DNA of 64,000 bases from Sphingobacteriales bacterium (lineage in GTDB: Bacteria; Bacteroidota; Bacteroidia; CAILMK01; JAAYUY01). Each line of letters begins with the position of its first letter. The stretch's first letter is position 1. The notes under the pieces were generated by a model. The model made no database searches and was not told the DNA's origin. It saw only the letters and a program-made list of their open reading frames with translations. Both the position numbers and the translations under genes were made by a program. The stretch covers positions 1,609 to 65,608 of the forward strand of contig JAAYUY010000076.1 in assembly GCA_012517435.1 (NCBI GenBank), written 5' to 3'. Positions 2,269 through 35,649 of this stretch are shown here, piece after piece.

Positions 2269-2271
2269 TTT

Positions 2272-11200: not shown

Positions 11201-14200
11201 GTTCCGGCTGTGCTGTATGTCTTGGCAGGTGGATTCTGACTGGTGGAAGTCGTTCCGTCTCCAAAAGTCCAGTAATAGCTCGTAATGGTACCTGATGTTA
11301 CTGAAGAGTTATCTGTATAGGTAAAGCTGTTGCCACTCAGACATTGTTTATTGTCATCTATGGTAAAGTCAGCTACAGGCTGCGGATCGACTGTTACCTG
11401 TTTCGTGATGCTGTCTTTACAGCCATTGTTCGTGGTTGCCACCAGTTTTACATTATAAGTACCGGCTAAGCTGTAGGTGATTCCTGACGGATTCTGGCTG
11501 GTCGAAGTGTTCCCATTGCCAAAGGTCCAGCTCCAGCCACTGACACTGCCACTCGATACGGTGCTGCCATCGGTAAAGCTGAAGCTGTTTCCGCTCAGAC
11601 ACTGCTTGTCGTCAGCTATGCTGAAGTCGGCTACCGGCTGCGGATCGACTGTTACCTGTTTCGTGATGCTGTCTTTACAGCCGTTGTTCGTGGTAACTAC
11701 CAGTTTTACATTATATGTTCCGGCTGTACTGTATGTCTTGGCAGGAGGATTCTGACTGGTGGAAGTCGTTCCGTCTCCAAATGTCCAGTAATAGCTCGTA
11801 ATCGTGCCTGATGACACTGATGAATTATCAGTATAGGTAAAGCTGTTGCCACTCAGACATTGTTTATTGTCATCTATGGTAAAGTCTGCTACCGGCTGCG
11901 GATCGACTGTTACCTGTTTCGTAATGCTGTCTTTACAGCCGTTGTTGGTCGTTGCTACCAACTTGACATTGTAAGTACCAGCTACACTATAGGTGATTCC
12001 TGACGGATTCTGGCTGGTCGATGTGTTCCCGTTGCCAAATGTCCAGCTCCAGCCACTGACACTGCCACTCGACACGGTGCTGCCATCGGTAAAGCTGAAA
12101 CTGTTACCGCTCAGACATTGCTTGTCGTCAGCTATGCTGAAGTCGGCTACCGGCTGCGGATCGACTGTTACCTGTTTCGTGATGCTGTCTTTACAGCCAT
12201 TGTTGGTCGTTGCCACCAGCTTGACATTGTATGTGCCGGCTGCACTATAGGTGATTCCTGATGGATTCTGGCTGGTCGAAGTATTCCCATTGCCAAAGGT
12301 CCAGCTCCAGCCACTGACACTGCCGCTCGATACGGTGCTGCCATCGGTAAAGCTGTAACTGTTACCGCTCAGACACTGCTTGTCGTCAGCTATGCTGAAG
12401 TCGGCTACCGGCTGCGGATCGACTGTTACCTGTTTCGTAATACTGTCTTTACAACCGTTGTTCGTGGTAACTACCAGTTTTACATCATAAGTACCGGCTA
12501 AGCTGTAGCTGATTCCTGATGGATTCTGGCTGGTCGAAGTGTTCCCATTGCCAAAAGTCCAGCTCCAGCTTGCAATGCTGCCACTCGACACGGTGCTGCC
12601 ATCGGTAAAGCTGAAGCTGTTCCCGCTCAGACACTGCTTGTCATCAGCTATGCTAAAGCCGGCCACCGGATTCGGATTGGGAGCTATCGTAGCTGTTGCC
12701 GTATCATTGCTGGCATCCGGGTCATTTTGCCCGTTTGGCTTATAGCTGACAGCTACAATATTTTCATTTGATGTAAAGTTATGAATACCAATACTGAATG
12801 TAATACTACTATCGGTCGGTAAGGAGCCTGTCCAGTAATAAGTAGTCTTGGGCACACCGTTGACGCTCCACCTGATGCTATCCTTGGTCAGGTAATTGGC
12901 TCCGTTGTTTTTCAGGGTAACATATACAGCATAATTGCCCGGACAACCCGGAGTGGCAGTAACAGAGACCAGTTGTGCATCATTTTCACGGCCTTCATCG
13001 GCTCCGATATATGGAGCAGAGGTGCTTCTGGTGGCTCCGTCAATATCCGTTGTAACAAAAGAAGTTACCGGGGTACCAGCCTTCATGGTATCTGTTTTTA
13101 CATGAAGATCGGTATTGCTGACAAAATACGGATTTTTGCTGATTGAATTCTGATCAAGGCCGGAGGCTGAATTCCATGTGGCCAGACTTGAATAGTTTGT
13201 GGAATTATAATATACCAGGTCGCTGCCTGTCGTACGAAGGTTATTGTAGTCAAACTGTGTTATGGTAGCTACAGAAGACATCGGGATATAAACTGCATAT
13301 CCTCCTCCGCTGTTGTTGAAAATATTGTTTTTGAAATAAAGACCTGAAGTGGTGGCATACAGGTATAATGCGGAGCTGTTGTTGGCTCCGGTGGTAATGT
13401 TTACTGAATTGTAGTAATAATCTGTATAATGCGAATTGTAGGAATAAATCCCATAATGAGTATATGAAGTACTGCTATTAGTGATTGAAACAAAGTTGTT
13501 GGCTACAAGGTTACGGTTGGCTGCGGTATTGTTGTCTCCGTTAAAGTAATAGAGATAAATTCCATAAGCAGTGTTAAGTCCCTGAAGCTGAATTTTATTG
13601 TTCTGTATCTGGGTCTTGGTGGTTCCGTTGACATAATAAACACTGGAGAAATAAATACCGTATTTGAAATTGGATGAATTGATATCAATGATATTGTTGT
13701 TGAACTTATTCCCGTAATAGCAGTTGATAGCATATATACCATAAGAAGCTACATTGATGGAATTGTAACTTACATCAGAAGTATAGGCTATCTGATTGAT
13801 ATTAATACCGTAAAAACCTACAACTGGTGAAGATATGGTATTATTGGTGATGGAAATACCTCTTTGCTGATTGACATTAATACCCTGATAGGTAAAGTTT
13901 TTAATGGTATTGTAATCAATCTTGTTCCCATAAACGACCGGATAACTATATCCATTCATCACCACACCGTTATAGCCATTTTCAATGGTATTGTATTGAA
14001 CCTCATCATATTGGCAATAGTTTCCTGAACCGGTTCCGACAAAAGAAACCACATCAGAATTGTTTCCATTCACGCTGGTCGAACTGCTAATAATATGGTT
14101 ATATTTTATTTTGACATAATTGGCTGAGTTGGTGGCGTAAATAACCCTGTTATACGTATTGGAAGTATTGCGGATGGTCAGGTACTGGAAGGTAATGTAA

Positions 14201-17200
14201 TCGGTACCATTGAGGCTGATTACATAGTTGGTGGATGAAGTAGAGTTGCCGTATGTCAATATAACCTTTGAAGTATCATTATCTTCCGACTTGAAAGTAA
14301 TGGTATTGACAGCTGAAGCACCCGGAATCTGTCCGAGTTCAAACTGCTCGTTATAAGTTCCGGCTCTGACATTAAAGGTTACCGGCCCGCGCACACCGCA
14401 GTTATTAAGGAAAAATGCAGCATCGGAGAAGGTGGCAAAATTGGGGGAAGTACCACCAATGGTATAATTACCGGACAATGCGGCACAAATGTAGCCTGTG
14501 GCTGTATCATTGGCGGGTTTGTTGTCTGTCGTGGCATTTGGTTCACTGGTGTTGGCCACAATGGTATAGAGAATACCATCTGAAACACTCACATTTCCAA
14601 GACTTTGCGTTGCGGTTTGTCCGCTTGTCAGTGAGCCGCCCCATGCTTGCTGGCTCTGAGCCGTACCATTGACTTTCCAATTGACTTTTGCACTGGTCAA
14701 GGTATTCAGACCATAGTTTTTAATGGTTGCTGAAATGCTCTTGGTACCAGGGGCATATGGCGGTGTAGGACCTGTAATGGCATACACGCCTGCATCATTG
14801 TTGACAGGCACTGTACCTGAAATATTAATATCATCAAAGATAACTGCTTCATTACCTAACTGATAACGTGATTTATAGGAAAATTTAAGTTGCGTGGTAC
14901 CTGATACCGATTGCCCTGCATTCCGTAATACATCACTGATACTTGCAGAAGCATTTTTCCATGTCATATCGCCAGCACGATTGGCACTGATATCATATAA
15001 TAAAACCCATGGTGTAGAAGGATCATTATTTCCTCTTACCCAAACTCCATCTTCAGCAGAATATTGGCGATACATCTGATACATGTACCAGAAAGAAATA
15101 TCCAGGTCAGTAGCTCCAACATAGTTGCTGAGATTCAGGGTAAGAATCAGATTACCAACTGCCCAGCTATTGAAAACAGCATTATCGATCAATGCAGCAT
15201 AAGCGCCTCCGGTCGTGTGATTATAAACCGAACCTGCATTCATTTGCAGACGCGACTGATCAGTGGGTGCAGGAACTGATTCAAACTGCCATTCTTCCAA
15301 TCCACTTCCATTGAGCGGCCTTGTTGAAGCGGTGTAGGTATATGGTGTTGTGGCGGTTTCAAAATCTTCACTATACGGCAAGGTAAGCGGCAACATATTG
15401 ACCATTCGGCTTCCTGTCGGATTTTGATCTGTTGTCGGATACAAAGAACCATTGACAGAAATACTGTTTGCTTTTATTTTGGCATCTACTGTATTAAACC
15501 AGACTGCATTCGAAGTAATGTCATAGGTGATCCAGAGATATGTTGTTGAATTGCCCGGTAAATCATAATTAATAGAATTCCATTTCACTGAGCCTCCGGA
15601 AAGTACTTTTCCCGTACCAACAGGAACGGCTGTTGAGAAGGTTGGCGTTGTGGTCCGGAACAACCTGACCGTGTCAATATCGCTGTTTGAAGTATTGACG
15701 GCAGTAACCTCCAGTGAATCAAGATAGAGGTTGCTGGTGGTTCCATTTACAACAAAGTCAAGCCTTAATACAGGATAATAGTTGGAATCCCTGTAAACAT
15801 CATCTGTCGAGGGCTGAACATATTCAATACGGCTGAGCACCTTATCATTGGTTATTTTTCTGAAGCCTGCAGGAGCAGTAACGGTATTTATTCTGGCCGT
15901 ATCATCAACGATAACCGTATCACATTCAGCATCAATGGTGTCGCCTATATTGGCTCCGCTCTTTACGTCATAAGCAAGCCAGAAATAGTTGGTACCTGCC
16001 TGGAGTTCCTGTGTTCCGGTAATGATAAACCGGCCATTGGGTGCACTGACCGTACTGCCAAACTGATTGGCAATGCTGAAATTATTACTGGTTCCTGTAT
16101 AGTACAATCTTGCATTTTGAATGTTGGTGGTGGGTGAATTGGTTCCGTTGGTGGTGAAAGAGAATTTGCTGGCAGAAATAGCACTATCCTCTCCGCTTGT
16201 AACAACCTGAATACCAAGAATCTGGTTGTAGGAAGAACCCGGAGTCACATTGCTGGTAACACTTTGCGTGGTCGTGGAAGACACATATTTCATGGCCGGC
16301 CTGATTTCATCGGCACCAATAGTAGGTGTGGAAGTACTGCGGCTGTGTCCGTCAATATCTGTATTGACATAAGTAACCGGGGTTCCTGCATTGAGCTGGG
16401 TGTTCCATGTATGCAGGTCATTTGCACTCCAGAACGATGGATTGTAGTTTTTGGAATTGGCTTCGAATGGTGTTACTGCTGTCTGCCAGTTGGCAAAACT
16501 GGTATAGGATGAACCATTCAGATAGCCAATATAGGTTCCGGTAGCATATATGTTATTGTAATCAGAAGCCTGAGGAACATAGCTGGAAGCAATATATACA
16601 GCATAACCTCCGCCTGTATTGGAAGCTATATTGTTGTAGAAATAATTGTAAGTGTTTGTTGATGAGTGATTAAAATACAAGGCGGCAGAAGAGGTGGAAC
16701 CATTGCGGATGCTGATGCTGTTGTGAATAAAATCTGTATTGTTACAGCTGGTGTACTGCACTCCGTAACAGGTTCCCGTACCGTTGTACAGCGAAACAAA
16801 GTTATTGGCAATCAACCATCTGTATTCTACACTTGAACCATTACCCTGTAAACTGTTCATGTATATACCTACAGAAGTTGAAGAAGAGGTTGTTCCCTTT
16901 AATATCACCTTGTTCCTCAACACGGTGGGTTTAACCATATTATCATTGTAGTAACAGCTTGTCAGATAGATACCTACCTGAACATAGGTGCTGTTGATGG
17001 TAATCTGGTTATCGTTTACCCTCGGGCCATAGTAACAGGAGGTGAAGTAAATACCGTACTTGGTATTTGAACTTCCATCGAGTAACACAGTGTTTCCGAT
17101 GGCTTCTGTCTGGTAATAACACTGGGTGATATAAATACCATAGTTTATATATGTATTGTTGGTTCTGACCGTATTGTAATCGGCTTTGGCAGCTTTCTGG

Positions 17201-26200: not shown

Positions 26201-29200
26201 TCAGGGCGGAAAGTTATGGTATTGGTTGGTGAAGCTCCGATAATATTAGTAAAGGCAAACTGCTCGTTGTAGGTGCCCGACCTGACATAGAACACAACAG
26301 GACCACACACGCCACCTGCATTCAAATCACTGACGGCTTCTGTAAAAGTAGCATAATCCGGTGAAGTACCTCCAATGGTATAAGTACCTGTCAAACTCAA
26401 TGTAGCTTTAACTTTTTTCAGGTCATTGGATGTATTTCCGTCAGAGGCACTGTTTGGATTTTCTGTCCATGCATATACACTGTCTCCTTTTGTAAGAGTA
26501 AGCACACCAACTGTAACATCCAGCGTATTGTACGAAGGTACTGAAATTGAGCTCAGGCTGTAAGTAGTAACCGTACCATTGTAGTTTTTCTTAAACTTGA
26601 CATCCACAGAGGTCAATGTTGAGGTACCATAATTGTAAATCCTTACTTTTACAGAGTCGGTACCCGGGCAGGAAGGATCGGAGGAAGAGGGTTTTAAAAT
26701 GTCTGTTACCCCTGCATCATTGGCATAAGGCGTGAATTCATCGGCTCCGATATCCGGTGTGGAAGCATGACGGCTTTCTCCGTCAATATCATCTGATACC
26801 GAAGTAACCGGTGTACCCGATGCATTCAGATTGCTGTTCACCGTGTGGAGATCATAGGTGGTGAAATAATATGGATTGACTGATTTTGAGTTTGCATCCA
26901 GCGAGGTTCCGGAATTCCATGAAGAAAGAGTCCCGTAACTGGTTCCATTGTAGTACCCCAGATTGGTGCCTGTAGCGTAAAAATTATTGTAATTACTCGT
27001 ATTTACTGTCGTGCTGGATGAGTAATACATGGCATAACCGCCTCCGGTATTCGACACACAGTTGTTTTTTACGTCATGATATGCCGATGAGGATGTGAGG
27101 TACAAACCATAACTACTGCTCGTTACTCCCGTAATATTTACACTGTTGTAATATATTTCCGAATAAGTTCCGGCATCATAAATCATATAGGTAGAGCCCG
27201 TTCCAATGGCTTGAGAAACAAAATTATTCGCAATTAATGATTTCTTGGTTGATGAGTTGGATCCACTTCTGTAAATACCATAATTGGTATTGGTGGAATT
27301 GTTTCCTTTCAGCGTTATTTTATTCTTTACAATTTCATTTATGGTCGAACCGCTATTGTCATAATAACTGGAAGCATAAATACCATACTGAGTGCTTGTC
27401 CCTTCTATGATTATTTCATTTCCATTGGTCTGGTTATTGGTATATGCTGAGTTGTAATAAATCCCATATTTGGTTCCGCTTCCGCCATTATAGATGTAAT
27501 TATTGTTTACTTTATTTCCAGTATTAAAATTAGTACCATAAAAACCATAGGCGGTAGAGGAAGTTGTCAGGTTAATGTTATTCCCGATAACCTCAGCATT
27601 CTGGCAACCGGAATTGTTGAAATAAATCCCATAATAGGTTGTTGAACTGGAGGAAGTAATACGATTGTATCTGATTTTCGCATAATTTTGATAATACATG
27701 TAAAAACCATACTGATACTGATTTTTAACCACATTGCTGTCAAAGGTATTATACTGGCAATAACTGCTGCTATAACCATAAAAGTAAACAGCGTAGGTGG
27801 CACCATCAAAAATGCAGTATTTAGAGGTGATTGACCCGGAATTGGAAGAGGCTGCCGTGGAATACAGATACCAGATGGCCCAATCGGTAGAAGCAGTAGT
27901 GGTTTGATTAGCCAGAAAACGGCAACTTTGAAACACCAGACTATCTGCTTTGGAGGCAAACTCAATCACCCTGCCCCGGCCGGTGGAGGTATTCTGAAAG
28001 GTAATCTGTTTGAAGGTAATATGGCTGCATCCGTTAAGTTTCAGGACATAGTTGTCTGTAGCCGTGGCATTATTGCTTAAAATGACCTTTGAACTGTCGC
28101 CTGAGTATGACCTGAAGAGAATAGTATTGGAGGTCGAAGCTCCCGGAATATTATTGATGGTGTAGTATCCGTTGTATGTCCCGTCATAAATTTCAAACAC
28201 AACGGCTGCATTCACACCTCTGCCGTTCAGATCGTTAATGGCTGCTGTTACAGAAGTATAATTGCGCGGTCCGGTGGTATTTGGGTCTATGGTATAGGTT
28301 CCGTTCATGGGCTCTGTAATCAGCCTTTCTCCTGTCGGATTCGATACCACAGGATATTTTGTCAGAATAGTTCCTGACGAATCAATGATGATGGTATCAA
28401 TGGTCCCGTCAATATAATCCCCGAGGCTTGCTGCAGTTACCACATCATAAGCCAGCCAGAAATAATTGGTTCCTGCGAGCAATGCCTGCGAACCGCTGAC
28501 AGAAAAGGTGTTGGTTATCGTATTCAGTGTTGAACCAAACTGAGTAGTGGTTGAAAAGGTAGAATCGTTTCCTGTATAGTAAACCCTTGCATTTTCCACA
28601 TCGCTCAGCGAAGTTGTTCCGCTGGAGGTAAATGCCAGCCGCTTGAGGATAAGCGGATTTGAACAGCCTGTGGTAATTATCTTCACGCCTAATACTTCGT
28701 TTTTAACCGAATTAGGCACTACCACCCCAAGATTGCTGTGAAATCCTGTTGCATAATTCATGGCATGAGCCGAAGGATTGTCGTCTGCACCGGCAAAAGC
28801 AGGCAAGGCACGGCAATTTCCGTCTATATCCGTAGTAATTCCATATAAAGACTGAACTATTTTCAATGAAGTATTGGAAGTATGCAGATCGCTGGTACTC
28901 GTAAAGGAAGGATTTACGTTTATTGAATTGGCATCATTGTTATTAAAGTTGTTTTTCCATGTTGCAAGGGTGCTTTTTGTTACACTGTTCAGATAACCCA
29001 TCTGTGCACTGCCGGTATAGTAAAAATTATTGTAATCGCAGGAAGTAATATTGGTAGAAGCATAAGAACTGGAAACAATCATAGCATAACCGGTACCTGA
29101 TTTTGAAATATTGTTATTTAAAAATCTTATATCCAGATAACTTGAACTGGTAGAGGTAGGTATATAAACTGCCGCACACGAAGTTGCTGAAGAGCCTGAA

Positions 29201-30489
29201 CAGGTATTGTTCACACTGTTAAACATGAAATCTGTGTAACCGCAGGAAGTCAAATAAACACTGTATATGGTTGAACCTGTACCGTTGGCTGTGGCAACAA
29301 AGTTATTATACACCTTGTTCCTTGCCGATGCAGTACCATAGCAGCTTGATAAATATAAACTATAACTTGTACCAGTAGTTGCTCCTTTACAATAAATTTT
29401 ATTACCTGAAATATTGGTGGTTAGGCTGCCGTTTGTGCCAGTAGCACTCGAAACATATATCCCGTATTGCGTGCCGGTACCTCCTGCAGAAACTTCTACG
29501 ATATTATTTTGAATCTGTGGTCCGTTGTAAGTACTTGATAAATACATACCATAAGTCGTAGAAGAGGAGGTTACATTAACATTATTGCCGGTAATAGTTG
29601 AATAATAATTGCTGGAGCCATAAATTCCATATAATGTTGATGAACTTGTTATATTGACAGTATTGTTGGAAATAATGGCATAATAGGAATAATAGACATA
29701 TATACCATACCTTGTAGTAGTTGCACCGGTATAGCTAATATTATTACCCGTAATTACAGAGTAGTAAAAAGGATAATAATGATAAATTCCATAATAATAA
29801 AAACCACCTATCTTGTTTCCTATTAATGAATCATAGGATGCATTGTATGAAGTAGAGCTCGCATAATATAAATAAAAACCAGAATAACCATTATTGACTA
29901 CATTGTATTTAAAAGCATTTCCCTGAAATTTACCACTTGAACTGACAGTAGCTCCAATTGATACTACTCCGTAATTTGCTCCGGAGGTAGTGGTTGTAGC
30001 TCTTTGAAGAATACAGTTTTCAATTTTGATATAATTGGTACCATACGTACTACTTGGATTAAACCTTACGGCATTCCCGGTCCCTGTACTGGTATTTACG
30101 ATTTTTATCCATTTAAACCGGTAATACTGAACATTACCTGTAGAAGGTGTAAATTGAACGGTAGCAGTGGTACTCGAATCGGTCAAAGTTACCTTTGTAC
30201 TGTCCATGCTCTGACTGACAAAAGTAATCATATTGGATGCAGAAGCTCCTGTTACATCCCGAAGGGTAATCGCTTCATTATAGGTTCCGTCTCGCACGAC
30301 AAAGGTAACACCACCCGTACCAACACCTTTGCTATTCAGGTCGGATATGGCTGCTGTAAAAGTGGCATAATCAGGGCTGGTGCCTCCGATGGTCTTCGTT
30401 CCGGTCAGGGCCTGGCCCCGGCTTTCCGTTACTGAAAACAGTACTGTAACTGCAATAAATACAATGAAATTCAATACGGCTCTTTTCAT
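2272..30489 (-). CDS. Giant (9405 aa) T9SS-secreted cell-surface adhesin-like protein. It has nine beta-helix/CARDB supermodules, BACON/Ig-like domains, a MAM-like jelly-roll domain, about 33 PKD domains, five SprB repeats and a type-A C-terminal sorting domain.
   Basis: Uninterrupted 28,218-nt ORF. The signal peptide is MKRAVLNFIVFIAVTVLFSVTESRGQ. The N-terminal part shows periodic NxxYGIY beta-helix rungs, PDIGADE-type linkers and CARDB-like Ig domains. It is followed by long arrays with the WxFGDG...GxYxVxL PKD signature. The C-terminus (YPNPADDYVNLEM...GLYMVEITTKDGVLRHKIFRR) is a Por_Secre_tail-type CTD. Confidence 0.93.
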   Translation of the reverse strand: MKRAVLNFIVFIAVTVLFSVTESRGQALTGTKTIGGTSPDYATFTAAISDLNSKGVGTGGVTFVVRDGTYNEAITLRDVTGASASNMITFVSQSMDSTKVTLTDSSTTATVQFTPSTGNVQYYRFKWIKIVNTSTGTGNAVRFNPSSTYGTNYIKIENCILQRATTTTSGANYGVVSIGATVSSSGKFQGNAFKYNVVNNGYSGFYLYYASSTSYNASYDSLIGNKIGGFYYYGIYHYYPFYYSVITGNNISYTGATTTRYGIYVYYSYYAIISNNTVNITSSSTLYGIYGSSNYYSTITGNNVNVTSSSTTYGMYLSSTYNGPQIQNNIVEVSAGGTGTQYGIYVSSATGTNGSLTTNISGNKIYCKGATTGTSYSLYLSSCYGTASARNKVYNNFVATANGTGSTIYSVYLTSCGYTDFMFNSVNNTCSGSSATSCAAVYIPTSTSSSYLDIRFLNNNISKSGTGYAMIVSSSYASTNITSCDYNNFYYTGSAQMGYLNSVTKSTLATWKNNFNNNDANSINVNPSFTSTSDLHTSNTSLKIVQSLYGITTDIDGNCRALPAFAGADDNPSAHAMNYATGFHSNLGVVVPNSVKNEVLGVKIITTGCSNPLILKRLAFTSSGTTSLSDVENARVYYTGNDSTFSTTTQFGSTLNTITNTFSVSGSQALLAGTNYFWLAYDVVTAASLGDYIDGTIDTIIIDSSGTILTKYPVVSNPTGERLITEPMNGTYTIDPNTTGPRNYTSVTAAINDLNGRGVNAAVVFEIYDGTYNGYYTINNIPGASTSNTILFRSYSGDSSKVILSNNATATDNYVLKLNGCSHITFKQITFQNTSTGRGRVIEFASKADSLVFQSCRFLANQTTTASTDWAIWYLYSTAASSNSGSITSKYCIFDGATYAVYFYGYSSSYCQYNTFDSNVVKNQYQYGFYMYYQNYAKIRYNRITSSSSTTYYGIYFNNSGCQNAEVIGNNINLTTSSTAYGFYGTNFNTGNKVNNNYIYNGGSGTKYGIYYNSAYTNNQTNGNEIIIEGTSTQYGIYASSYYDNSGSTINEIVKNKITLKGNNSTNTNYGIYRSGSNSSTKKSLIANNFVSQAIGTGSTYMIYDAGTYSEIYYNSVNITGVTSSSYGLYLTSSSAYHDVKNNCVSNTGGGYAMYYSSSTTVNTSNYNNFYATGTNLGYYNGTSYGTLSSWNSGTSLDANSKSVNPYYFTTYDLHTVNSNLNASGTPVTSVSDDIDGESRHASTPDIGADEFTPYANDAGVTDILKPSSSDPSCPGTDSVKVRIYNYGTSTLTSVDVKFKKNYNGTVTTYSLSSISVPSYNTLDVTVGVLTLTKGDSVYAWTENPNSASDGNTSNDLKKVKATLSLTGTYTIGGTSPDYATFTEAVSDLNAGGVCGPVVFYVRSGTYNEQFAFTNIIGASPTNTITFRPDPANSTTPVIYYAGTSSFPYVIMFNGANYITVKKLKIINNSVTGYANVVKFQGNNKYITLDSNIFQGLYSTSTGSNYAVIYDLSGSGNNTEYTNITNNTIKYGSYGIYLYGNSTSQSTYEYLNNISGNLIDSFYQEGLWLYYNRKTTINKNIVRGGPSATTLYGLDLYYCDTLVSVQQNQIIHTRTSSNTSYGVYMYYCRTDLANTHTVANNFVSINGGTGTAYGFYVYYTNYVNFYHNSVVNYAGPSSTSNVCMYFSTPITNNTIKLRNNLLVNKSSGYCIYTASTATFTSSNYNDFYTNGTILGNWGGTNCNTLSNWQSTSLQDANSMSVDPQFPWVNSPMHFSNAMNFGETGLGITTDIYDTVRVTPTVGAYEYKTPSYDAGISAIVSPSVPFCGSSVIVTLNNYGLQTLTHDTIFWSVNGTAQTPYVWSGTLASGNSTNVTIGTYSFTVSQTYTVKAWVGKVINNTQTDPNIYNDTATAVVTIAQLGMSGIYTIGGSSPDYATFNDAITDLTNKGVCGPTIFYVREGTYNTQITIPQINGASLTNYIVFQPDPANTNPVIINYSATGTGDNWVLRFYEADYVTWKGMKLYALGTTYANVVVFQGLTNYNTVESCYLYGYIGSTTSTSQAVVYHNTSTANKANYNKIKNNVIKYGSYSIYTYGVSSSDMEEANEITGNLIDSFYYYGLYNYYQSNLKINKNTIRGMGAYSTEYGIYAYYCYNALEITQNNVQVRSTSTNYGMYIIQGIGTLSSPGLIANNFISHTGTSTGSNYGIYSSGCTWHKYYHNSINIVVGSAGTTGNTCMYLSGSTNSNNIVKNNILYNGNSICMYLSPIDYVSASDYNCFYATFIGYANSTFYNTISQWRAGTLQDAHSIVEVPGFYSNTDLRHNNNNLNVGVGGLGITVDIFDSARIAPTIGAYEKPSSGYDLSVTQLLSPVKPICSTSQTVKVVIKNLGTYNITSDTIRWEVNGVSQTPVAWTGLLIPGDTEQVVLGTYNINTGSSYTFKVYHSYINGTIADINPGNDTLNVTGIQRGMSGNYTIGGTSPDYPTFTAAVNALIANGVCGPVVFNARNGTYTEQFSIPAISGASATNTITFQSEALDSSKVTIYYDATTQYGQYIVQLFNTSHIILRYLTIWNNSTSGYNRVIDIANGTDSIYILNNRLVGVSTTSSGTGYAVIYSDGSMANYRVQNVTIRYNRIENGSASIYLNGYTNASLNLYTWNNVIEYNVCKDFYYYGIYAYNQRGIKINNNILQSPSAAAYYPIYTYYFYYGCQVNNNTITTTGTTSTGYGIYSYYSYFGNQFNNNTISISGTYYQYGISLYYPYSGNQVNKNDITLTYTGTTTAYYQYGIYLQSMDSAYGSQKSTVLKNNVRLIGNSSYYIYQYGLYYISGWGNSMTYKNLIANNFISLTNNPSGYAYAVYFSSPGYTDFVHNTIHVASSSSSYYAFYVTGVQVTNSVDVVNNNFVNTAAGYCAYYSTNTAIRWMNNNNYYTTGTYLGYWGGARTDLAAWKTATAKDSSAVNYNPNFVSSTNLHASNTNMNNKGVGLSWLVADDIDNESRNASTPDPGADEYNVATLDAGISAIVSPSSAVCPGSVTPTVRIKNYGTATIDSVWVKYKVNYNGTVTSVKVVTTILSNGYYDYAFAGSINMNYGDTLYAWTEDPNNSTDNNTSNDLYKNRILQKLSGTLTIGGVSPTFSSFTEAVTALQTYGVCGPVTFLVRQGTYNEQITIPAISGISSSNTVTFRSDYSNSQMPVLTYAGTGSTNWIVRFNATSYITFKKIKFINTSTIYGTVFNFTGANEYLTLDSNWIEGTGNAASGNWASTNLALLYGTSGNQLHRSNITNNTMKYGSYGVYLMGNSTSDPERTNNFTGNTLDSFYYMGMYFYYHCYLTLDKNTLRSRGVYSTEYGLYLYYCDTSLAITGNNIMLRSTQTNYGIYMNYCRSNSTKAIPVNNNFVSITGGTTSTTYGIYLYYSSYNKLYHNSVNLLAGQANSSASACYYLYGSSSQYNEFVNNIGVHKNQGLALYLYPDNYLSACDYNDYYTNGNYFIYSGTYGYQSSLSQWILNSPWDDHSKDLDPSFYSNTDLRHYSSTMNFGVTGTGVTTDIFGTTRISPTVGAYEYIQPAYDAGITAILNPVVPLCALTGNVTVTLKNFGSTTLTSDTIRWSINGTAQTPYAWTGSLASGQTANVNIGAYSFTAGNSYTIKAYPSYFNGTQADGNPTNDTSTSAGIRTGLSGTYTIGGSSPDYSSFTEAVNALVTYGVCGNVVFNVRQGTYYEQIEIPAIPGAIQSRSVTFQNDPANTYDAVLTYAPSSSLTNYVLRFNGAKCITIKGLKIQTSSSAYGRVIEFKGNNDSITILNNKIYGSTFLSSSDIYTVIYNYSSGANTCNDITIQGNTIKYGSYAIYWFGDASPYEYRNAFISNTIDSFYTYGIYSYYQYDIKIQRNLIRSRSLITGEYGIYLINSNTSTGSTGSEISRNRIFLKGPGSDYGLYMNSCSGNSSVPFAVFNNYISIYGSNTSSAVYGLAVYSSQYVNIYHNSVNVQAGPSNTTSNAGLYLSGSSNYYNNVKNNIVVNKNSYAIYLSPNDYVASCDYNDLYTNSLYLCNNGTNYTTLSAWQAGSGWDANSVNIDPGFVSNTDLSHSNYSLNRGVTGLGISTDIFDSTRYTPTIGAYELKPIARDAGIIAILSPVHPSCAATADVKVTIKNFGTAALTSDTIRWTVNGVAQTPYAWTGNLSFGDTAQVVIGQYTLSTNTAYNFKVYVSYFNGQYAETQTGNDTVYGNNIYRGMSGTYTIGGTSPDFASFNAAVTALSTQGICGPVVFNVRNGVYTEQVVIPSITGSSATNTITFQSESNDSTKVTLQYSATLSTANYTIKLDGADYIIIRKMTIKALGTTYSRVVDLTNQANYNTFTSNIFIGYYSTNTSDANAVVYSYYTSQSTHCTFNTFTYNVVKYGSYGFRWGGYSPSYSEGNVFNYNLVDSFYYYGVFIYNQKAAKADYNTVRTNNTYINYGIYITQCYYQTEAIGNTVLLDGSSNTKYGIYFTSCYYGPRVNDNQITINSTYVQVGIYLTSCYYNDNMVKPTVLRNKVILKGTTSSSTSVGIYMNSLQGNGSSVEYRWLIANNFVSLYNGTGTCYGVQYTSCNNTDFIHNSISIRNGSTSSAALYFNHSSTNTYNYFYNNIASNTGGGYAVYIASSYVPQASDYNNIYATGTYIGYLNGSSYTSFANWQTAVTPFEANSKNYNPSFWSANDLHTWNTQLNAGTPVTYVNTDIDGHSRSTSTPTIGADEIRPAMKYVSSTTTQSVTSNVTPGSSYNQILGIQVVTSGEDSAISASKFSFTTNGTNSPTTNIQNARLYYTGTSNNFSIANQFGSTVSAPNGRFIITGTQELQAGTNYFWLAYDVKSGANIGDTIDAECDTVIVDDTARINTVTAPAGFRKITNDKVLSRIEYVQPSTDDVYRDSNYYPVLRLDFVVNGTTSNLYLDSLEVTAVNTSNSDIDTVRLFRTTTPTFSTAVPVGTGKVLSGGSVKWNSINYDLPGNSTTYLWITYDITSNAVWFNTVDAKIKANSISVNGSLYPTTDQNPTGSRMVNMLPLTLPYSEDFETATTPYTYTASTRPLNGSGLEEWQFESVPAPTDQSRLQMNAGSVYNHTTGGAYAALIDNAVFNSWAVGNLILTLNLSNYVGATDLDISFWYMYQMYRQYSAEDGVWVRGNNDPSTPWVLLYDISANRAGDMTWKNASASISDVLRNAGQSVSGTTQLKFSYKSRYQLGNEAVIFDDINISGTVPVNNDAGVYAITGPTPPYAPGTKSISATIKNYGLNTLTSAKVNWKVNGTAQSQQAWGGSLTSGQTATQSLGNVSVSDGILYTIVANTSEPNATTDNKPANDTATGYICAALSGNYTIGGTSPNFATFSDAAFFLNNCGVRGPVTFNVRAGTYNEQFELGQIPGASAVNTITFKSEDNDTSKVILTYGNSTSSTNYVISLNGTDYITFQYLTIRNTSNTYNRVIYATNSANYVKIKYNHIISSSTSVNGNNSDVVSFVGTGSGNYCQYDEVQYNTIENGYNGVVMNGYSYPVVYGNKIDYNTIKNFTYQGINVNQQRGISITNNTISSPVVGFYGININQIAYTSDVSYNSINVASYGIYAINCYYGNKFNNNIIDINSSNFKYGIYFSSVYYVNGTTKTQIQNNKIQLQGLNTAYGIYLYYFNGDNNTAANRNLVANNFVSITNSSTSYTHYGIYSYNSHYTDYYYNSVNITTGANNSSALYLYATTSGLYFKNNIFNNSGGGYAVYIPMSSVATITQFDYNNLRTTGSDLVYYNSTNYSSLATWNSASGLDQNSISKNPYFVSNTDLHVKTDTMKAGTPVTSFVTTDIDGATRSTSAPYIGADEGRENDAQLVSVTATPGCPGNYAVYVTLKNNGANYLTKDSIRWSVNGVPKTTYYWTGSLPTDSSITFSIGIHNFTSNENIVAVSYKPNGQNDPDASNDTATATIAPNPNPVAGFSIADDKQCLSGNSFSFTDGSTVSSGSIASWSWTFGNGNTSTSQNPSGISYSLAGTYDVKLVVTTNNGCKDSITKQVTVDPQPVADFSIADDKQCLSGNSYSFTDGSTVSSGSVSGWSWTFGNGNTSTSQNPSGITYSAAGTYNVKLVATTNNGCKDSITKQVTVDPQPVADFSIADDKQCLSGNSFSFTDGSTVSSGSVSGWSWTFGNGNTSTSQNPSGITYSVAGTYNVKLVATTNNGCKDSITKQVTVDPQPVADFTIDDNKQCLSGNSFTYTDNSSVSSGTITSYYWTFGDGTTSTSQNPPAKTYSTAGTYNVKLVVTTNNGCKDSITKQVTVDPQPVADFSIADDKQCLSGNSFSFTDGSTVSSGSVSGWSWTFGNGNTSTSQNPSGITYSLAGTYNVKLVATTNNGCKDSITKQVTVDPQPVADFTIDDNKQCLSGNSFTYTDNSSVTSGTITSYYWTFGDGTTSTSQNPPAKTYSTAGTYNVKLVVTTNNGCKDSITKQVTVDPQPVADFSIADDKQCLSGNSFSFTDGSTVSSGSVSGWSWTFGNGNTSTSQNPSGISYSLAGTYNVKLVATTNNGCKDSITKQVTVDPQPVADFTIDDNKQCLSGNSFTYTDNSSVSSGTITSYYWTFGDGTTSTSQNPPAKTYSTAGTYNVKLVVTTNNGCKDSITKQVTVDVQPVASFTTGNTCRENPATTFNTSTVSSGSITASLWNFGDGNTSSSTNGSHIYSNPGNYTIKLIVTTNNGCQDSTTNNITVYPKPVADFYAPNSSIDDTVQFSDSSTITSGSIVGFYYDFDDGTNSTLQNPKHKYLTYDTFYVSQIVVSDYGCKDTQVNQLIIYPKPGANFNYTNECYGFTTTFTNTSYAPPGQTFVSHHWDFDDGTTSTLQHPTHQYSASGTYDVQLIVTTNTGGKDTVVKTVTVYPKPMADFTINDDKQCYSGHSFSFTNTSTVSSGSIVSYDWNFGDGTTSTAQNPSGKTYSVPDTFDVTLIVTTDNGCKDTIVKQVIVFPQSVADYSINNDKQCLSGNSFSFADLSTVSSGSISAWNWNFGDGGTSTTQNPTHSYTSAGTYTVKLIVTTDNGCQDSVSKSVTVYPQSAADFSINDDKQCLSGNSFSFTDNSTVSSGSITGWSWSFGDGNVSSSQNPTHSYSAAGTYSVKLMVTTDKGCIDSVIKNVVVYPQSTAGFNINDDKQCLSGNSFSFTDISTVSSGSITNWNWTFGDGSNATTQHPTKVYTSAGTYTVKLIVTTNNGCLDSASSSVTVDPQTTVSFSINNDKQCLKGNSFDFTDGSTVSSGSVTGFAWTFGDGSSSTLQNPTGKVYASAGTYDVKLITTTNNGCTDSLTKQITVHPQSSVDFSVANACLDDTLAFTNLSTISGGSIATHYWDFADTYNSTDQHPKHKYAVSGNYNVMLVETTDKGCKDTVVKTLTVYPKPDAVFTHDAGCVNQAINFYNSSSVSSGSITSYLWNMGDGSGAVIVKNPVHLYNSAGNYTVQLIVTSNYSCRDTAVSVVKVTPLPVASFTVNNNCFGDSTVFTNTSTLSSGTMSYIWSFGDGDSSTVQHPKHLYQSSGTYVVTLTVITDNNCTDVFTYNVTIYPNPIVNFTLNDVCYGQNASFNNITYITSGTFTSNWNFGDGSSSTTASPSHYYNADGSYNVTLVATSNFGCKDSTVKSISIYPKPVSAFSATDNCTGKSISFSNTSTVSSGTLTHVWDFGDYTSSTSVNPLHTYTTANTYTVTLISTSDKGCKDTAISTITAYPVPVAGFNAGNVCKGTATSFTNTSTISSGTMSYVWTFGDGNSSTSSDPVYTYASAGSYTVKLVVTSDNGCKDSISKTVTVYPMPVVSFTAANVCNGTAVNFVNSSSVSSGSNSYLWNFGDGNTSNNTSPNYTYSASGTYSVKLIATTNNGCVDSLVKTVEVYPQPVAGFNAGNVCKGTATSFTNTSTISSGTMSYVWTFGDGNSSTSSDPVYTYASAGTYTVKLVVTSANGCKDSISKTVTVYPMPVVSFTAANVCNGKAVNFVNSSSVSSGSNSYLWNFGDGNTSNNTSPNYTYSASGTYSVKLIATTNNGCVDSLVKTVEVYPQPVAGFNASDVCKGTATSFTNTSTISSGTMSYVWTFGDGNSSTSSDPVYTYASAGTYTVKLVVTSGNGCKDSISKTVTVYPMPVVSFTAANVCEGNQVSFTNNSGVSSGTNSYSWNFGDGSTSANTSPTHTYTGSGTFDVKLIATTNNGCKDSLIKQVVVYPAPHAGFSATTVCSGDSTVFTNTSTISSGTMDYMWYLGDGNTSTATSFKYKYASAGTYTVKLVVSTSNGCKDSITQTVTVNPMPVASFTANDVCNGNAVSFSNNSTISSGSMSYLWKFGDGNTSNNVSPNYTYASSGTYSVELVITSDKGCVASVVKTVNVNPVPVAGFSANNVCDGQYVSFNNTSTISSGTMSYYWTFGDGNTSTSTSPSYLYASAGTYSVSLKATSDKGCVSTYNSSVTVYPMPTVSFTANNDCQGTAIEFKNTSSVSGGSNSYYWTFGDGNSSNNVSPYHTYSASGTFTVVLQATTDKGCIDTLSKQVTVYPLPVAGFSASNVCYGTSTSFTNSSTISSGTMSYLWNFGDNTTSTQTSPAHLYAAAGTYTVTLTVTSDKGCVSTISSQVTVYPMPVVSFTFNNICEGSSASFYNNSTITSGSMSFAWNFGDGATSTVMSPNHTYSVANSYNVKLVATSNYGCKDSSTKTITVYAMPKVSFSTANVCDKHSASFVNNSTISSGTMSHTWYFGDGSSSTVINPTKLYSAPGTYTVKLVTVSDKGCSDSVTKSVTVYDAPSVSFTTANVCYGNQASFTNTSSINTGVLTYKWYFGDGSTTTSMHATKMYASAGTYQVKLVATSNHGCSDSLTIPVTIYPKPDINIDAYNITCAGLNDGKITVHAHKGTSPYSFSMNGTTYQNDSNFVKLGKGSYSVFAKDQRGCMDTGSFVITEPDPIVITVSKVNVKCKGDMTGSITLTATGGTGTYQYSADGGKTYQAGNVFNGLKAGYYIVSVKDGNNCSESQGVTITEPIAALDVTVASKTNVSCKGSSTGSVSLTGTGGTGLYQYSLNGTTFQASGYFNNLPAGNYKAYIRDANLCLDSVSFTITEPAQALTIKSIDKTDVACYGDFSGKLTVHASGGVKPYKFTLDKVHYRSDSNFINLVKGVYTVTVIDQNGCQTDQQVTISEPSAPLSIKVDNITNENCPNDGTGALTVSGAGGTAPYTYSKDGVNYQASGTFSNLKSGTYEIWVKDSKLCLQSKLITISSNTLPPEADFDVYINSHSASFVNKSKNATSYQWNFGDASTSTANSPVHIYKAAGKYTVTLIAINSCTSDTITKQLNIYPTSIGDENSGQYIGVVIYPNPADDYVNLEMTANQDIGELYIRVLNSEGAVMDEYKGDVFDKQYRHRIDLMNYAKGLYMVEITTKDGVLRHKIFRR
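2275..2530 (-). other. T9SS type-A C-terminal sorting domain (Por secretion tail) of the 9405-aa protein
   Basis: The last ~85 aa read ...IYPNPADDYVNLEMTANQDIGELYIRVLNSEGAVMDEYKGDVFDKQYRHRIDLMNYAKGLYMVEITTKDGVLRHKIFRR. The coordinates are approximate. Confidence 0.8.
2790..3965 (-). other. Five tandem SprB repeats near the C-terminus of the 9405-aa protein
   Basis: Five ~80-aa units have the CxG.xDG.I...GG..PY.YS pattern. One example is NITCAGLNDGKITVHAHKGTSPYSFSMNGTTYQ. The coordinates are estimated from residue counts. Confidence 0.6.
6105..7385 (-). repeat. In-frame tandem DNA repeat of 486-bp units (two PKD domains each), about 2.6 near-identical copies
   Basis: The string ggc(g/a)gc(t/a)gtgaagctgac(c/t)accggcatcggatagac recurs at 6121, 6609 and 7096. 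The protein shows ...YPQPVAGFNAGNVCKGTATSF...VKTVEV repeated with only a few substitutions. Confidence 0.85.
10612..12676 (-). repeat. In-frame tandem DNA repeat of eight 258-bp units (one PKD domain each). Two alternating variants in the order B A B A B A A A by ascending coordinate.
   Basis: The string ggctgcggatcgactgttacctgtttcgt recurs at exact 258-bp spacing, for example at 11120, 11378 and 11636. The protein units are near-identical (PQPVADFSIADDKQCLSGNSFSFTDGS... versus PQPVADFTIDDNKQCLSGNSFTYTDNS...). Identity is visibly above 95% between same-type copies. Confidence 0.9.
14795..15380 (-). other. MAM/cleaved-adhesin-like jelly-roll domain (choice-of-anchor-J-like) inside the 9405-aa protein
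   Basis: The segment runs LPYSEDFETATTPY...GWxx...FWYMYQ...VIFDDINISG. YSEDFE at the domain start is typical of this fold family in Bacteroidota surface proteins. The assignment comes from motif recall only. Confidence 0.4.
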
Positions 30490-32369: not shown

Positions 32370-32375
32370 TCAGTC

Positions 32376-33824: not shown

Positions 33825-33888
33825 ATTTGCATATCTGATTTAATTCTCAATTTTGATTCGAAATTAAAATGCTACTTTTTGCAAAATA

Positions 33889-35646: not shown

Positions 35647-35649
35647 TAT

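Follow-up and report, generated by a model that had tools for sequence, protein, structure and literature searches.

Tandem capped beta-helix and CARDB-type Ig units in two giant proteins of a Sphingobacteriales bacterium

Introduction

Two giant open reading frames in a 64,000-nucleotide stretch of DNA from a Sphingobacteriales bacterium (hereafter, the window) encode long arrays of a repeated unit, raising the question of whether this unit is a new kind of domain or a new arrangement of known ones, and what it might do for the cell. An original prediction, made from the sequence, described a supermodule consisting of a conserved head, parallel beta-helix rungs, a conserved PDIGADE linker, and a closing CARDB-like Ig domain. 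The analysis below gives a domain-level reading of approximately 10,000 residues that are left blank by current annotation. The unit is an unnamed sub-family of known folds and not a new kind of domain; no new fold, system, or mechanism is revealed.

The Giant Proteins and Their Repeat Units

ORF A (2272-30489, minus strand) is one open frame of 9405 codons encoding 9405 aa, and ORF B (46045-62493, minus strand) encodes 5482 aa. A module profile built from 11 clear copies and searched against both proteins detects nine beta-helix units between aa 27 and 5936 of ORF A, as well as seven complete units (aa 287-4077) and one orphan Ig (aa 178-282) in ORF B, confirming the predicted supermodule in nine plus seven copies. 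The domain E-values of the individual units in the two ORFs range from 1e-44 to 1e-228, and the matches are far beyond chance. In ORF A, the profile ranges are aa 27-572, 726-1361, 1364-1915, 1920-2466, 2468-3112, 3118-3669, 3672-4224, 4225-4788, and 5335-5934. The features of ORF A are listed from the N-terminus.

30412..30489, minus strand: signal peptide, aa 1-26, recognized by eye from the sequence MKRAVLNFIVFIAVTVLFSVTESRGQ
28780..30411, minus strand: unit 1, capped beta-helix aa 27-570, without Ig (module HMM, 16-copy alignment)
28381-28713, minus strand: BNR_assoc_N after unit 1 (Pfam E 5.5e-15)
26404..28314, minus strand: unit 2, long beta-helix with extra rungs, aa 726-1251, and CARDB-like Ig aa 1256-1362 (HMMs, alignment)
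24748..26400, minus strand: unit 3, beta-helix aa 1364-1805 and Ig aa 1809-1914 (the copy used for the structure model)
23095..24732, minus strand: unit 4, beta-helix aa 1920-2354 and Ig aa 2360-2465 (HMMs, alignment)
21139..23088, minus strand: unit 5, long beta-helix aa 2468-3007 and Ig aa 3012-3117 (HMMs, alignment)
19489..21138, minus strand: unit 6, beta-helix aa 3118-3558 and Ig aa 3562-3667 (HMMs, alignment, TIGR03804)
17821..19476, minus strand: unit 7, beta-helix aa 3672-4112 and Ig aa 4117-4223 (HMMs, alignment)
14497..17817, minus strand: unit 8, irregular, beta-helix aa 4225-4728 and Ig aa 5230-5331 (Pfam, module HMM, Ig HMM)
Interior of unit 8, minus strand: BNR_assoc_N aa ~4746-4863, then a 366-aa insert, aa 4864-5229, ahead of the Ig
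12685..14487, minus strand: unit 9, beta-helix aa 5335-5832 and Ig aa 5835-5935 (HMMs, alignment)
2284..12681, minus strand: C-terminal part with ~36 PKD domains, SprB repeats, and T9SS sorting domain (Pfam)
2284-2511, minus strand: T9SS type A sorting domain (Por_Secre_tail PF18962 E 5.9e-10; TIGR04183)

The C-terminal part of ORF A harbors 36 PKD_4 stretches (Pfam), and its sorting domain matches TIGR04183 with an E-value of 5e-10 (39.2 bits vs a cut-off of 23 bits). The corresponding features of ORF B are as follows.

61645..62193, minus strand: N-terminal GEVED aa 101-173 and orphan CARDB-like Ig aa 180-283 (Pfam, Ig HMM)
50260..61635, minus strand: units 1-7, aa 287-4078, each a beta-helix and a CARDB-like Ig (module and Ig HMMs)
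47008..49959, minus strand: eight canonical CARDB domains, aa 4179-5162 (Pfam CARDB E 1.1e-72, 8 stretches; jackhmmer)

The seven units of ORF B start at aa 287, 831, 1382, 1922, 2465, 3002, and 3543 and match the module HMM with E-values of 1e-204 to 1e-228. Its GEVED domain has a Pfam E-value of 1.7e-15, and the orphan Ig is a sub-threshold match to Pfam CARDB (E 6.4e-4, 20.3 bits). No T9SS sorting domain is detected in ORF B by Pfam and TIGR04183 scans.

The composite supermodule is genuine, and the predicted consensus strings for head, rung, linker, and Ig are all recovered in the 16-copy alignment. Several details of the original prediction require adjustment. The repetition stands, but the unit measures 535-650 aa, typically ~550, instead of ~600. 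The last unit of ORF A stops at aa 5936, i.e., nt 12682, close to the proposed array end at nt 12690. The nine ORF A units were assigned the same composition, which applies to seven of them; units 1 and 8 are irregular. The PDIGADE ending of the linker is replaced by (V/I)GAYE in ORF A units 3, 4, 6, and 7.

Copy-to-copy identity is 28-49% overall, with 31-49% among ORF A modules, 35-48% among ORF B modules, and 28-41% (mean 35%) between the two proteins, the last being lower than the 40-50% estimated by eye. Alignment of the whole proteins gives 32% identity across 4366 columns, in agreement with the proposal that the two giants are paralogous over approximately 4000 residues.

The Capped Beta-Helix Domain

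The first domain of the unit, from the head to GA(D/Y)E, comprises 426-544 aa and, according to the predicted structure, forms by itself a complete right-handed parallel beta-helix with the pectin-lyase fold. The modelled modules adopt the three-stranded right-handed form of this fold. In the model of ORF A unit 3, head and linker are continuous with the helix (pLDDT 84-98), and an N-terminal helix occupies residues 19-29. This helical cap is accompanied by a stacked asparagine ladder, with Asn conserved at 83-100% at profile positions 163, 191, 214, 242, 272/273, 300, 328/329, and 354.

A single domain begins with the head and ends with the linker, as shown by their fixed spacing in the giants and by the existence of single-module relatives. 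The 150 giants with the best scores contain 802 heads, of which 796 have a linker after them; the span has a median of 432 aa and a 5th-95th percentile range of 414-465 aa. In the single-module relatives P0031 and P0042, profile positions 2-442 are flanked only by a signal peptide and a T9SS tail. As predicted, head and linker are the most conserved segments, at 2.04 and 1.93 bits per column, respectively, vs 1.39 for the body and 1.26 for the Ig.

The body between the caps spans only ~270-380 aa, not the ~450 aa of rungs initially proposed. Judged by the Asn ladder and by the distance between YG(I/V)Y motifs, the rungs recur every 23-33 aa and most often every 26-28 aa, as opposed to a YGIY pattern every ~23 aa. 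Short copies have ~12-13 rungs, and ORF A units 1, 2, 5, 8, and 9 have 1-4 extra YGIY-type rungs. The body is composed of 56% S+T+N+G+Y, 13% Tyr, and 9% D+E+K+R.

The family assignment rests on the predicted structure and on relatives that score above the curated cut-offs, the window copies missing those of Beta_helix, NosD, choice_anch_Q, and CARDB. The window units reach 20.5 bits with Pfam Beta_helix (threshold 25.9) and 21.6 bits with NosD (threshold 23.6). ORF A unit 6 is the only window copy to reach the cut-off of TIGR03804 para_beta_helix (19.8 vs 19.45 bits). Relatives pass the beta-helix thresholds, such as P0061 with 52.3 bits, and many have precomputed PF13229 or PF05048 matches. 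The head has no Pfam match at E ≤ 1 beyond noise. Its profile aligns in register with the N-termini of five solved pectin methylesterases, with weak E-values of 0.07-0.95. Pfam and NCBIfam scans corroborate that no curated model spans the whole unit or the head.

On the basis of the model and the conservation pattern, the head would be an N-terminal cap in which a strand, an amphipathic helix, and a second strand are joined to the first rung by a G-T-Y-x-E turn. The body, in which Tyr, Asn, Ser, and Thr are abundant, would be held together by asparagine ladders and glycines. The linker would provide the C-terminal cap (C-cap), in which the last rung is followed by a short helix and then by a long ordered coil with D-I-D-G-x2-R-x4-P-D-I-G-A-(D/Y)-E at its end. 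The motif D-x-D-G-x2-R-x4-P-D-I-G-A-(D/Y)-E is nearly invariant in 813 copies, with D, R, G, and E at 99-100%. Such caps would let each helix fold alone and prevent end-to-end pairing of neighbors, and the low identity between copies would limit misfolding between adjacent domains. The strongly conserved end caps offer a defined starting point for asking how beta-helices in tandem avoid mis-pairing during folding.

The Linker and Choice-of-Anchor Q

Choice-of-anchor Q domains are typically preceded by a beta-helix region and followed by a C-terminal sorting signal. The family model, NF041518, is the only NCBIfam match to the window linkers, with E-values of 0.014-0.077 and 13.3-15.6 bits against a cut-off of 25 bits. 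The last ~40 linker residues, up to GA(D/Y)E, cover positions 17-57 of the 58 in the model. Among the linkers of relatives, 18 of 102 match at E ≤ 0.01, and the best scores are 29.3, 25.4, and 24.5 bits in the same register, with the first two above the cut-off. Because relatives' linkers pass the NF041518 cut-off in this register, the PDIGADE core is, by sequence, assigned as a divergent member of choice-of-anchor Q.

In the single-module relatives P0031 and P0042, the segment directly precedes the C-terminal sorting signal. In the window, by contrast, it recurs inside the chain, where a CARDB domain and a further helix come next in place of a sorting signal. In addition, the upstream half of the linker (DYNN.Y...L..W...G.DANS...DP.F) lies outside the NF041518 model. 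No solved structure is matched by the sequence of the second half of the linker.

The CARDB-Type Ig Domain

The second domain (~105 aa) is a CARDB-type Ig sandwich because the Igs of relatives pass the CARDB cut-off and because Foldseek matches the fold. Those of P0004 and P0061 score 35.5 and 30 bits, respectively, vs the 22.7-bit cut-off of Pfam CARDB. The module Ig adopts the CARDB-type beta-sandwich in Foldseek comparisons, with target-normalised TM-scores of 0.67 (3idu), 0.72 (2l0d, 25% identity), and 0.61 (2kl6); the same three structures are retrieved by a PDB profile search at E 0.02-0.04. The Ig proposed to close each unit is thus borne out, except in ORF A unit 1, from which it is absent.

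CARDB proteins (PF07705; 3idu, 2kl6, 2l0d) share with the module Ig the fold, the opening D(A/L)G(I/V)..I..P, and a closing N-D motif. The in-module copies differ in that they remain below the cut-off, with no Pfam CARDB match at E ≤ 0.1, and are distinct from the eight canonical repeats in the C-terminal part of ORF B. With those repeats, the Ig profile gives no hmmsearch match and is related only by hhalign (P 6e-4). Within the array, the Ig would space one helix from the next.

Identity of the Unit

No single described repeat family accounts for the whole module; each part is assigned separately instead. The original prediction placed neither head nor linker in a named family. This holds for the head insofar as no curated model covers it, although it weakly resembles pectin methylesterase N-termini, but not for the linker core, a member of NF041518. 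The reading of head and linker as new, independent domains unrelated to described families draws on the lack of a Pfam match for the head, on window linkers that fall below every curated cut-off, and on a second linker half that matches no solved structure. It is nonetheless highly improbable: both segments always flank one helix at a fixed distance and are modelled as continuous with it, relatives' linkers pass NF041518, and the head is in register with pectin methylesterases. A further possibility is that the arrays are collapsed or chimeric repeats produced by assembly or annotation of a metagenome-assembled genome, and the ORF A orthologues in other assemblies are indeed fragmented, being partial proteins of 5036, 6243, and 720 aa. 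However, the copies are divergent in protein sequence, DNA repeats in the array region are 60-80% identical in short conserved stretches only (spacing 1644-1665 nt), the frame of ORF A is open throughout, and at least four of the ten deposited members of its cluster match ORF B at 99.7% or full identity. Low DNA repeat identity together with near-identical proteins in independent assemblies argues that the array is not an assembly artefact, a possibility that was rejected on these grounds and carries almost no weight.

Relation to Known Systems

The closest known systems include the pectin-lyase-fold proteins (PF13229, PF05048, TIGR03804), and relatives of the modules are named by NCBI as "right-handed parallel beta-helix repeat-containing protein". 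The window body differs from these in being unusually poor in charge, in its Tyr content, and in having no conserved catalytic residues. Furthermore, the domain is repeated 7-13 times per chain, with each copy carrying its own caps.

In the AlgE mannuronan C-5 epimerases of Azotobacter vinelandii, beta-helix A-modules, one or two per protein, alternate with small R-modules, and secretion follows a different route. In contrast to AlgE, the window modules have no catalytic motif and are spaced by CARDB-fold Igs, not by calcium-binding R-modules. The calcium-binding nonapeptide repeats of R-modules are not among the Pfam and NCBIfam matches of the modules, for which only NosD, Beta_helix, and TIGR03804 are reported.

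SprB of Flavobacterium johnsoniae is likewise a repetitive protein of several thousand residues with a signal peptide and a T9SS sorting domain, and the C-terminal part of ORF A includes SprB repeats. The sorting domain of SprB is of type B, whereas that of ORF A is of type A (TIGR04183), and no PorP/SprF-type gene is found among the eight neighboring ORFs scanned. ORF A differs in both respects from SprB-type gliding adhesins, which combine a type B domain (TIGR04131) with a PorP/SprF neighbor.

Vag8, pertactin, and PfbA each have one long helix as opposed to a string of separately capped helices, and they rely on type V secretion or sortase anchoring, not T9SS. Pfam detects no autotransporter beta-barrel translocator at the C-terminus of ORF A.

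Export and Possible Function

ORF A combines the two features of T9SS cargo, a sorting domain and an N-terminal signal peptide, the latter assigned by eye, and many relatives carry PF18962. By analogy with T9SS cargo, ORF A would be exported by this system and tethered to the cell surface via its C-terminus, giving it a putative surface location. The nine beta-helix beads would then form the outer end of a fibre and the ~36 PKD domains its inner part, since the anchoring proposed for ORF A is C-terminal. The best explanation is probably that the capped beta-helix and CARDB units are non-catalytic rod or adhesive modules of a T9SS-exported surface fibre. In such an adhesin or fibre, the modules would act as rigid rod segments, with polar and aromatic faces giving multivalent contacts with surfaces or polymers. 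In a two-module model, the domains fold (pLDDT 83), with a pTM of 0.50 and an eight-row input alignment staggered by the repeats. The pTM does not support a rigid rod across modules, and the array may, as modelled, be a flexible string of beads.

Two other roles have to be weighed against this reading. The modules could be polysaccharide-active lyases, hydrolases, or epimerases, making the giants multi-catalytic surface enzymes like AlgE, but this is improbable. Across 813 modules, the body positions at which one residue reaches at least 60% are occupied by Asn, Gly, Ile, Leu, Phe, Thr, Tyr, or Ala, and no Asp, Glu, Lys, Arg, or His attains this level in the weakly charged helix body. The fully conserved charged residues D420, R426, and E437 (99-100%) are all located in the C-cap. 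The AlgE motif YG(F/I)DPH(D/E) is absent, with no DPH(D/E) anywhere in the arrays of ORFs A and B, no CAZy-type Pfam or NCBIfam family is matched by the modules, and the non-enzymatic beta-helices Vag8 and PfbA score equally well against them. AlgE-like catalysis was rejected on the missing conserved charged residues and the missing motif, and the modules appear to be non-catalytic, with the proviso that a module-specific site would escape a conservation test. A passive spacer or protective coat with no binding role is somewhat easier to accommodate but still unlikely. Conservation is limited to structural residues, surface positions vary freely among copies only 28-49% identical, and rung number differs from copy to copy, as would suit a spacer. 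Conversely, with ORF A anchored at its C-terminus, as proposed, the array would be distal to the PKD stalk, an odd place for a mere spacer. Moreover, sequence reading and Pfam reveal no further domain that might serve as an effector ahead of the array in ORF A, and ORF B has only GEVED and one Ig in this position.

The rod or adhesive reading leaves room for more specific roles. The unit could be a distinct, unnamed block of surface fibres across Bacteroidota and allied phyla with a C-cap clasp, formed by a metal or salt bridge, or with polymer-binding Tyr strips, which is conceivable but not the likelier outcome. The C-cap could, as a variant of the clasp, control folding after T9SS export or set the hinge between beads. 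If Tyr-rich faces do bind insoluble polymers, the giants would be multivalent tethers to particulate substrates. Literature searches on choice-of-anchor Q, T9SS beta-helix/CARDB, and giant beta-helix proteins retrieved nothing relevant to the function of the family.

Distribution and Deposited Relatives

Searches with the linker profile yield 12,949 protein clusters (50% identity), among them giants in which as many as 13 head-linker pairs occur. A related-locus search for taxonomic spread, with the seven ORF B linkers as the query, places the family in Bacteroidota and in assemblies labelled Calditrichaceae/Caldithrix, Ignavibacteriaceae, and Chlorobiaceae. Its cultured carriers include Marinilabilia salmonicolor JCM 21150 (ORF 505-4965 of the locus) and Saccharicrinis sp. 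FJH62. The composite had been proposed as the main structural novelty of the window; with this many linker clusters, the combination instead occurs in thousands of related bacterial proteins, and many giant surface proteins would be better annotated with a dedicated profile.

GenBank already lists ORF B as a hypothetical protein, with near-identical copies named "CARDB domain-containing protein", and an ORF A orthologue is deposited as "PKD domain-containing protein". Module identity with the 7-10-module giants P0100, P0107, P0109, P0096, and P0099 is 30-42% within and between proteins. The modules are about equally distant, so that a comparison for collinear module orthology gives no age estimate for the arrays. 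A word-index protein homologue search with the 102-linker alignment returned only one match, a yield limited by the index.

Architecture of the Giant Proteins

ORF A and ORF B are giant proteins built of units in which a head, a body of YG(I/V)Y rungs, and a linker with a PDIGADE core precede a CARDB-like Ig domain. A module profile made from eleven clear copies was searched against both proteins and against ORF C; it confirmed the predicted nine beta-helix units in ORF A and seven in ORF B, the latter all complete and lying between aa 287 and 4077 (domain E-values of 1e-44 to 1e-228 in the window proteins). No beta-helix units were found by this profile in ORF C.

Features of the giant ORFs (window coordinates, strand, description)
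2272..30489, minus, ORF A, 9405 aa
ORF A aa 27-572, 726-1361, 1364-1915, 1920-2466, 2468-3112, units 1-5 (profile search)
ORF A aa 3118-3669, 3672-4224, 4225-4788, 5335-5934, units 6-9 (profile search)
28381-28713 (A aa ~593-703), minus, BNR_assoc_N after unit 1, E 5.5e-15
15901-16254 (A aa ~4746-4863), minus, BNR_assoc_N after unit 8, E 1.2e-17
14803-15900 (A aa 4864-5229), minus, 366-aa insert of unit 8, between BNR_assoc_N and Ig
46045..62493, minus, ORF B, 5482 aa
ORF B aa 178-282, orphan Ig copy (profile search)
46048-47007, minus, last 320 aa of ORF B, sub-threshold PPC (pre-peptidase C-terminal) match only
36390..44996, minus, ORF C, 2868 aa, with an N-terminal M23 peptidase, 16 PKD domains, DUF7619, one SprB repeat, and a type A T9SS sorting domain

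The consensus strings originally read for head, rungs, linker, and Ig are reproduced in the 16-copy alignment A1. The repeat itself stands, but its size of ~600 aa is better given as 535–650 aa, of which the helix domain (head to GA(D/Y)E) takes 426–544 aa, and the rung period is 23–33 aa, most commonly 26–28, instead of ~23. Unit identity is 31–49% within ORF A, 35–48% within ORF B, and 28–41% between them, lower than the 40–50% estimated by eye for the last comparison. Whole-protein alignment (32% identity, 4366 columns) supports the proposal that the two giants are paralogous. Unit 9 of ORF A ends at aa 5936, i.e., nt 12682 (predicted, 12690), and four ORF A units close with (V/I)GAYE in place of PDIGADE. 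A BNR_assoc_N domain comes after unit 1, which has no Ig; in unit 8, a BNR_assoc_N domain and the insert precede the Ig. BNR-repeat neuraminidases carry BNR_assoc_N at their N-terminus, but neither copy in ORF A leads into a sialidase propeller. The sole match of the insert is a weak second BNR_assoc_N (E 6e-4), and by eye its second half (LPYSEDFE...W...) resembles MAM or LamG.

The repeat array is genuine. At the DNA level, the repeats reach 60–80% identity at most, in short conserved stretches spaced 1644–1665 nt apart. Residues 3–5482 of ORF B are 100% identical to GenBank NLJ06888.1 (a hypothetical protein of a Sphingobacteriales bacterium MAG), and ORF B is 99.7% identical to proteins of three further compared assemblies, in a cluster of ten deposited members. 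The divergence of the DNA repeats and the near-identical ORF B in other assemblies rule out an assembly artifact. As called mechanically, ORF B starts (62488-62493) with TTG, two codons before the start that the deposited 5480-aa proteins (P0095, P0246) use; the true start is therefore probably the downstream ATG. The window copy of ORF A appears complete; its orthologue is split in other assemblies into partial proteins of 5036, 6243, and 720 aa.

Fold of the Unit

An AlphaFold2 model of A3 (unit 3 of ORF A), computed from the 16 copies, is confident (mean pLDDT 90.7, pTM 0.84). It opens with a strand (residues 3–9), a helix (19–29), and a second strand (31–39), continues as an unbroken series of short strands up to residue 379, and passes through a short helix (382–389) and a long ordered coil (390–449, pLDDT in the 80s and 90s) into a seven-strand sandwich (450–552). 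Its structural matches are the Vag8 passenger (26.0), alginate lyase 6kfn (25.3), the AlgE4 A-module (24.8), NosD (24.1), BT_1002 (22.9), and the adhesin PfbA (22.2), with sequence identities of 7–17%, and Foldseek agrees with these beta-helix matches. The sandwich alone retrieves the CARDB structures 3idu, 2l0d, and 2kl6 by Foldseek (target-normalised TM-score 0.61–0.72). On the basis of the model and these matches, head, rungs, and linker form a single beta-helix domain, and the Ig is a CARDB-fold domain. In a two-module model, each domain is folded (pLDDT 83), but the pTM is 0.50; the result, from a thin and staggered alignment, is more in keeping with beads on a string than with a single rigid rod.

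Head and Linker as Caps

In a search of 1.84 billion representative proteins, the profile built from the 16 linkers matches 12,949 at E ≤ 1e-3, 6,875 at E ≤ 1e-10, and 1,615 at E ≤ 1e-30. The best 150 of the 12,949 are 1.7–7.8 thousand residues long, with 3–13 linkers each, and together hold 802 heads, 818 linkers, and 821 Igs. In these 150, a linker follows the head in 796 of 802 cases (median span 432 aa, 5th–95th percentile 414–465), and an Ig follows 668 of the 796 pairs. Some proteins (P0142, P0192) string helix domains back to back without an Ig, and in smaller relatives (P0031, P0042) a single helix domain, which ends precisely with the GA(D/Y)E motif, lies between a signal peptide and a T9SS sorting domain. 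Judged from this pairing, the Ig-less strings, and the single-domain relatives, the Ig is separable from the helix, while head and linker are not. Across 813 modules, head and linker (2.04 and 1.93 bits per column) are better conserved than body and Ig (1.39 and 1.26), which is why these two elements stood out in the original prediction.

Family Placement

Originally, neither head nor linker could be placed in a named family. The window linkers match a single model, NCBIfam NF041518 (choice-of-anchor Q; 58 positions, 25-bit cut-off), at 13.3–15.6 bits (E 0.014–0.077), below the cut-off. Eighteen of 102 diverse linkers of relatives match it at E ≤ 0.01; ten of these, re-scanned, gave 29.3, 25.4, and 24.5 bits, the rest lower, with model positions ~17–57 always on the last ~40 residues and ending at GA(D/Y)E. 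On these matches, the PDIGADE core is assigned as a divergent choice-of-anchor Q domain. The upstream linker half (DYNN.Y...L..W...G.DANS...DP.F) weakly matches the C-terminal region of 9rx2_A, a solved "parallel beta-helix repeat protein" (E 0.02); the second half has no sequence match among solved structures.

The Igs of the window modules fall below the Pfam CARDB threshold (22.7 bits), whereas their homologues in P0004 and P0061 exceed it (35.5 and 30 bits). The body scores below the NosD and Beta_helix thresholds in the window copies, while the bodies of many relatives exceed them. The head matches no Pfam family. Its profile lines up, in the same register, with the very N-termini of five pectin methylesterase structures (E 0.07–0.95), sharing a strand, a helix, and "...I.V..GtY.E.v.I"; these matches are weak singly, mutually consistent, and in line with the A3 model. 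The head and the composite lie outside every curated model, as predicted, but the proposed structural novelty dissolves into familiar parts: the unit is a divergent, unnamed sub-family in which a CARDB domain joins a pectin-lyase-fold beta-helix that carries the customary caps, with choice-of-anchor Q as the C-cap.

Distribution

The unit occurs widely among Bacteroidota and allied phyla, and ORF B was already deposited. A [PS]DIGADEF scan of one genome per species returned >600 stretches, 472 of them confirmed as relatives. The 80 loci kept stem from Bacteroidales, Flavobacteriales, Saprospiraceae, Chitinophagaceae, and Cyclobacteriaceae, and from assemblies that bear the labels Calditrichaceae/Caldithrix, Ignavibacteriaceae, and Chlorobiaceae. 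Among the cultured carriers are Marinilabilia salmonicolor JCM 21150, with a 1486-aa protein of two back-to-back helix domains (its C-terminal tail is T9SS sorting domain-like by eye), and Saccharicrinis sp. FJH62, whose protein has three or more helix domains. In NCBI, relatives appear as "right-handed parallel beta-helix repeat-containing protein", "CARDB domain-containing protein", or "hypothetical protein"; a literature search found no paper on the module or on choice-of-anchor Q.

Between ORFs A and B and five other multi-module giants (P0096, P0099, P0100, P0107, and P0109), module identity is 30–42%, about as within one protein, and modules do not correspond position by position. Identity seems to be at a floor, so the age and expansion mode of the arrays cannot be read from it.

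Proposed Surface Location and Function

A signal peptide, read by eye, opens ORF A, and the nine units are followed by ~36 PKD domains, SprB repeats, and a terminal type A T9SS sorting domain. Type A T9SS cargo loses its sorting domain at the outer membrane, and the C-terminus so created is joined to surface lipopolysaccharide. If this route applies, the beta-helix array of ORF A would form the distal half of a surface fibre of great length. No T9SS sorting domain is recognisable in ORF B, whose surface anchoring is putative; such tails are present on ORF A, ORF C, and a 686-aa ORF (208-2268).

The absence of the AlgE catalytic motif, a body low in charge (9% D+E+K+R, against 56% S+T+N+G+Y, with 13% Tyr), and the lack of any charged helix-body residue at 60% conservation among the 813 modules favour non-catalytic rod or contact parts, i.e., an adhesin or surface fibre. 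Strong conservation in the body falls on an Asn ladder, on glycines, and on a handful of hydrophobic or aromatic residues; all charged residues with full conservation (D420, R426, and E437; 99–100%) are in the C-cap. The caps may let each helix fold alone and block neighbouring helices from pairing end to end. The most novel, though less probable, reading would give the near-invariant C-cap motif and the Tyr-rich faces a specific role, e.g., a clasp formed by a metal or a salt bridge, or a strip of aromatic residues for binding.

Neighboring Genes

Genes flanking the giants (window coordinates, strand, description)
62566-63312, minus, 248-aa ORF upstream of ORF B, weak coiled-coil-type matches only (ArlX, apolipoprotein, IcmG/DotF)
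44999-46021, minus, 340-aa ORF, 23 nt downstream of ORF B in a different frame, immediately upstream of ORF C
31026-36339, plus, two TrkA/TrkH potassium-uptake gene pairs in succession
208-2268, minus, 686-aa protein of PKD repeats bearing a CHU_C (type B) T9SS signal domain, immediately downstream of ORF A

The 340-aa ORF matches no Pfam or NCBIfam family except weakly DUF5711, and by the same scans is not of PorP/SprF type. ORF C is a third giant surface protein. The TrkA/TrkH pairs part the giant genes and run on the opposite strand. The CHU_C protein follows ORF A at once, which makes type A and type B T9SS cargo neighbours.
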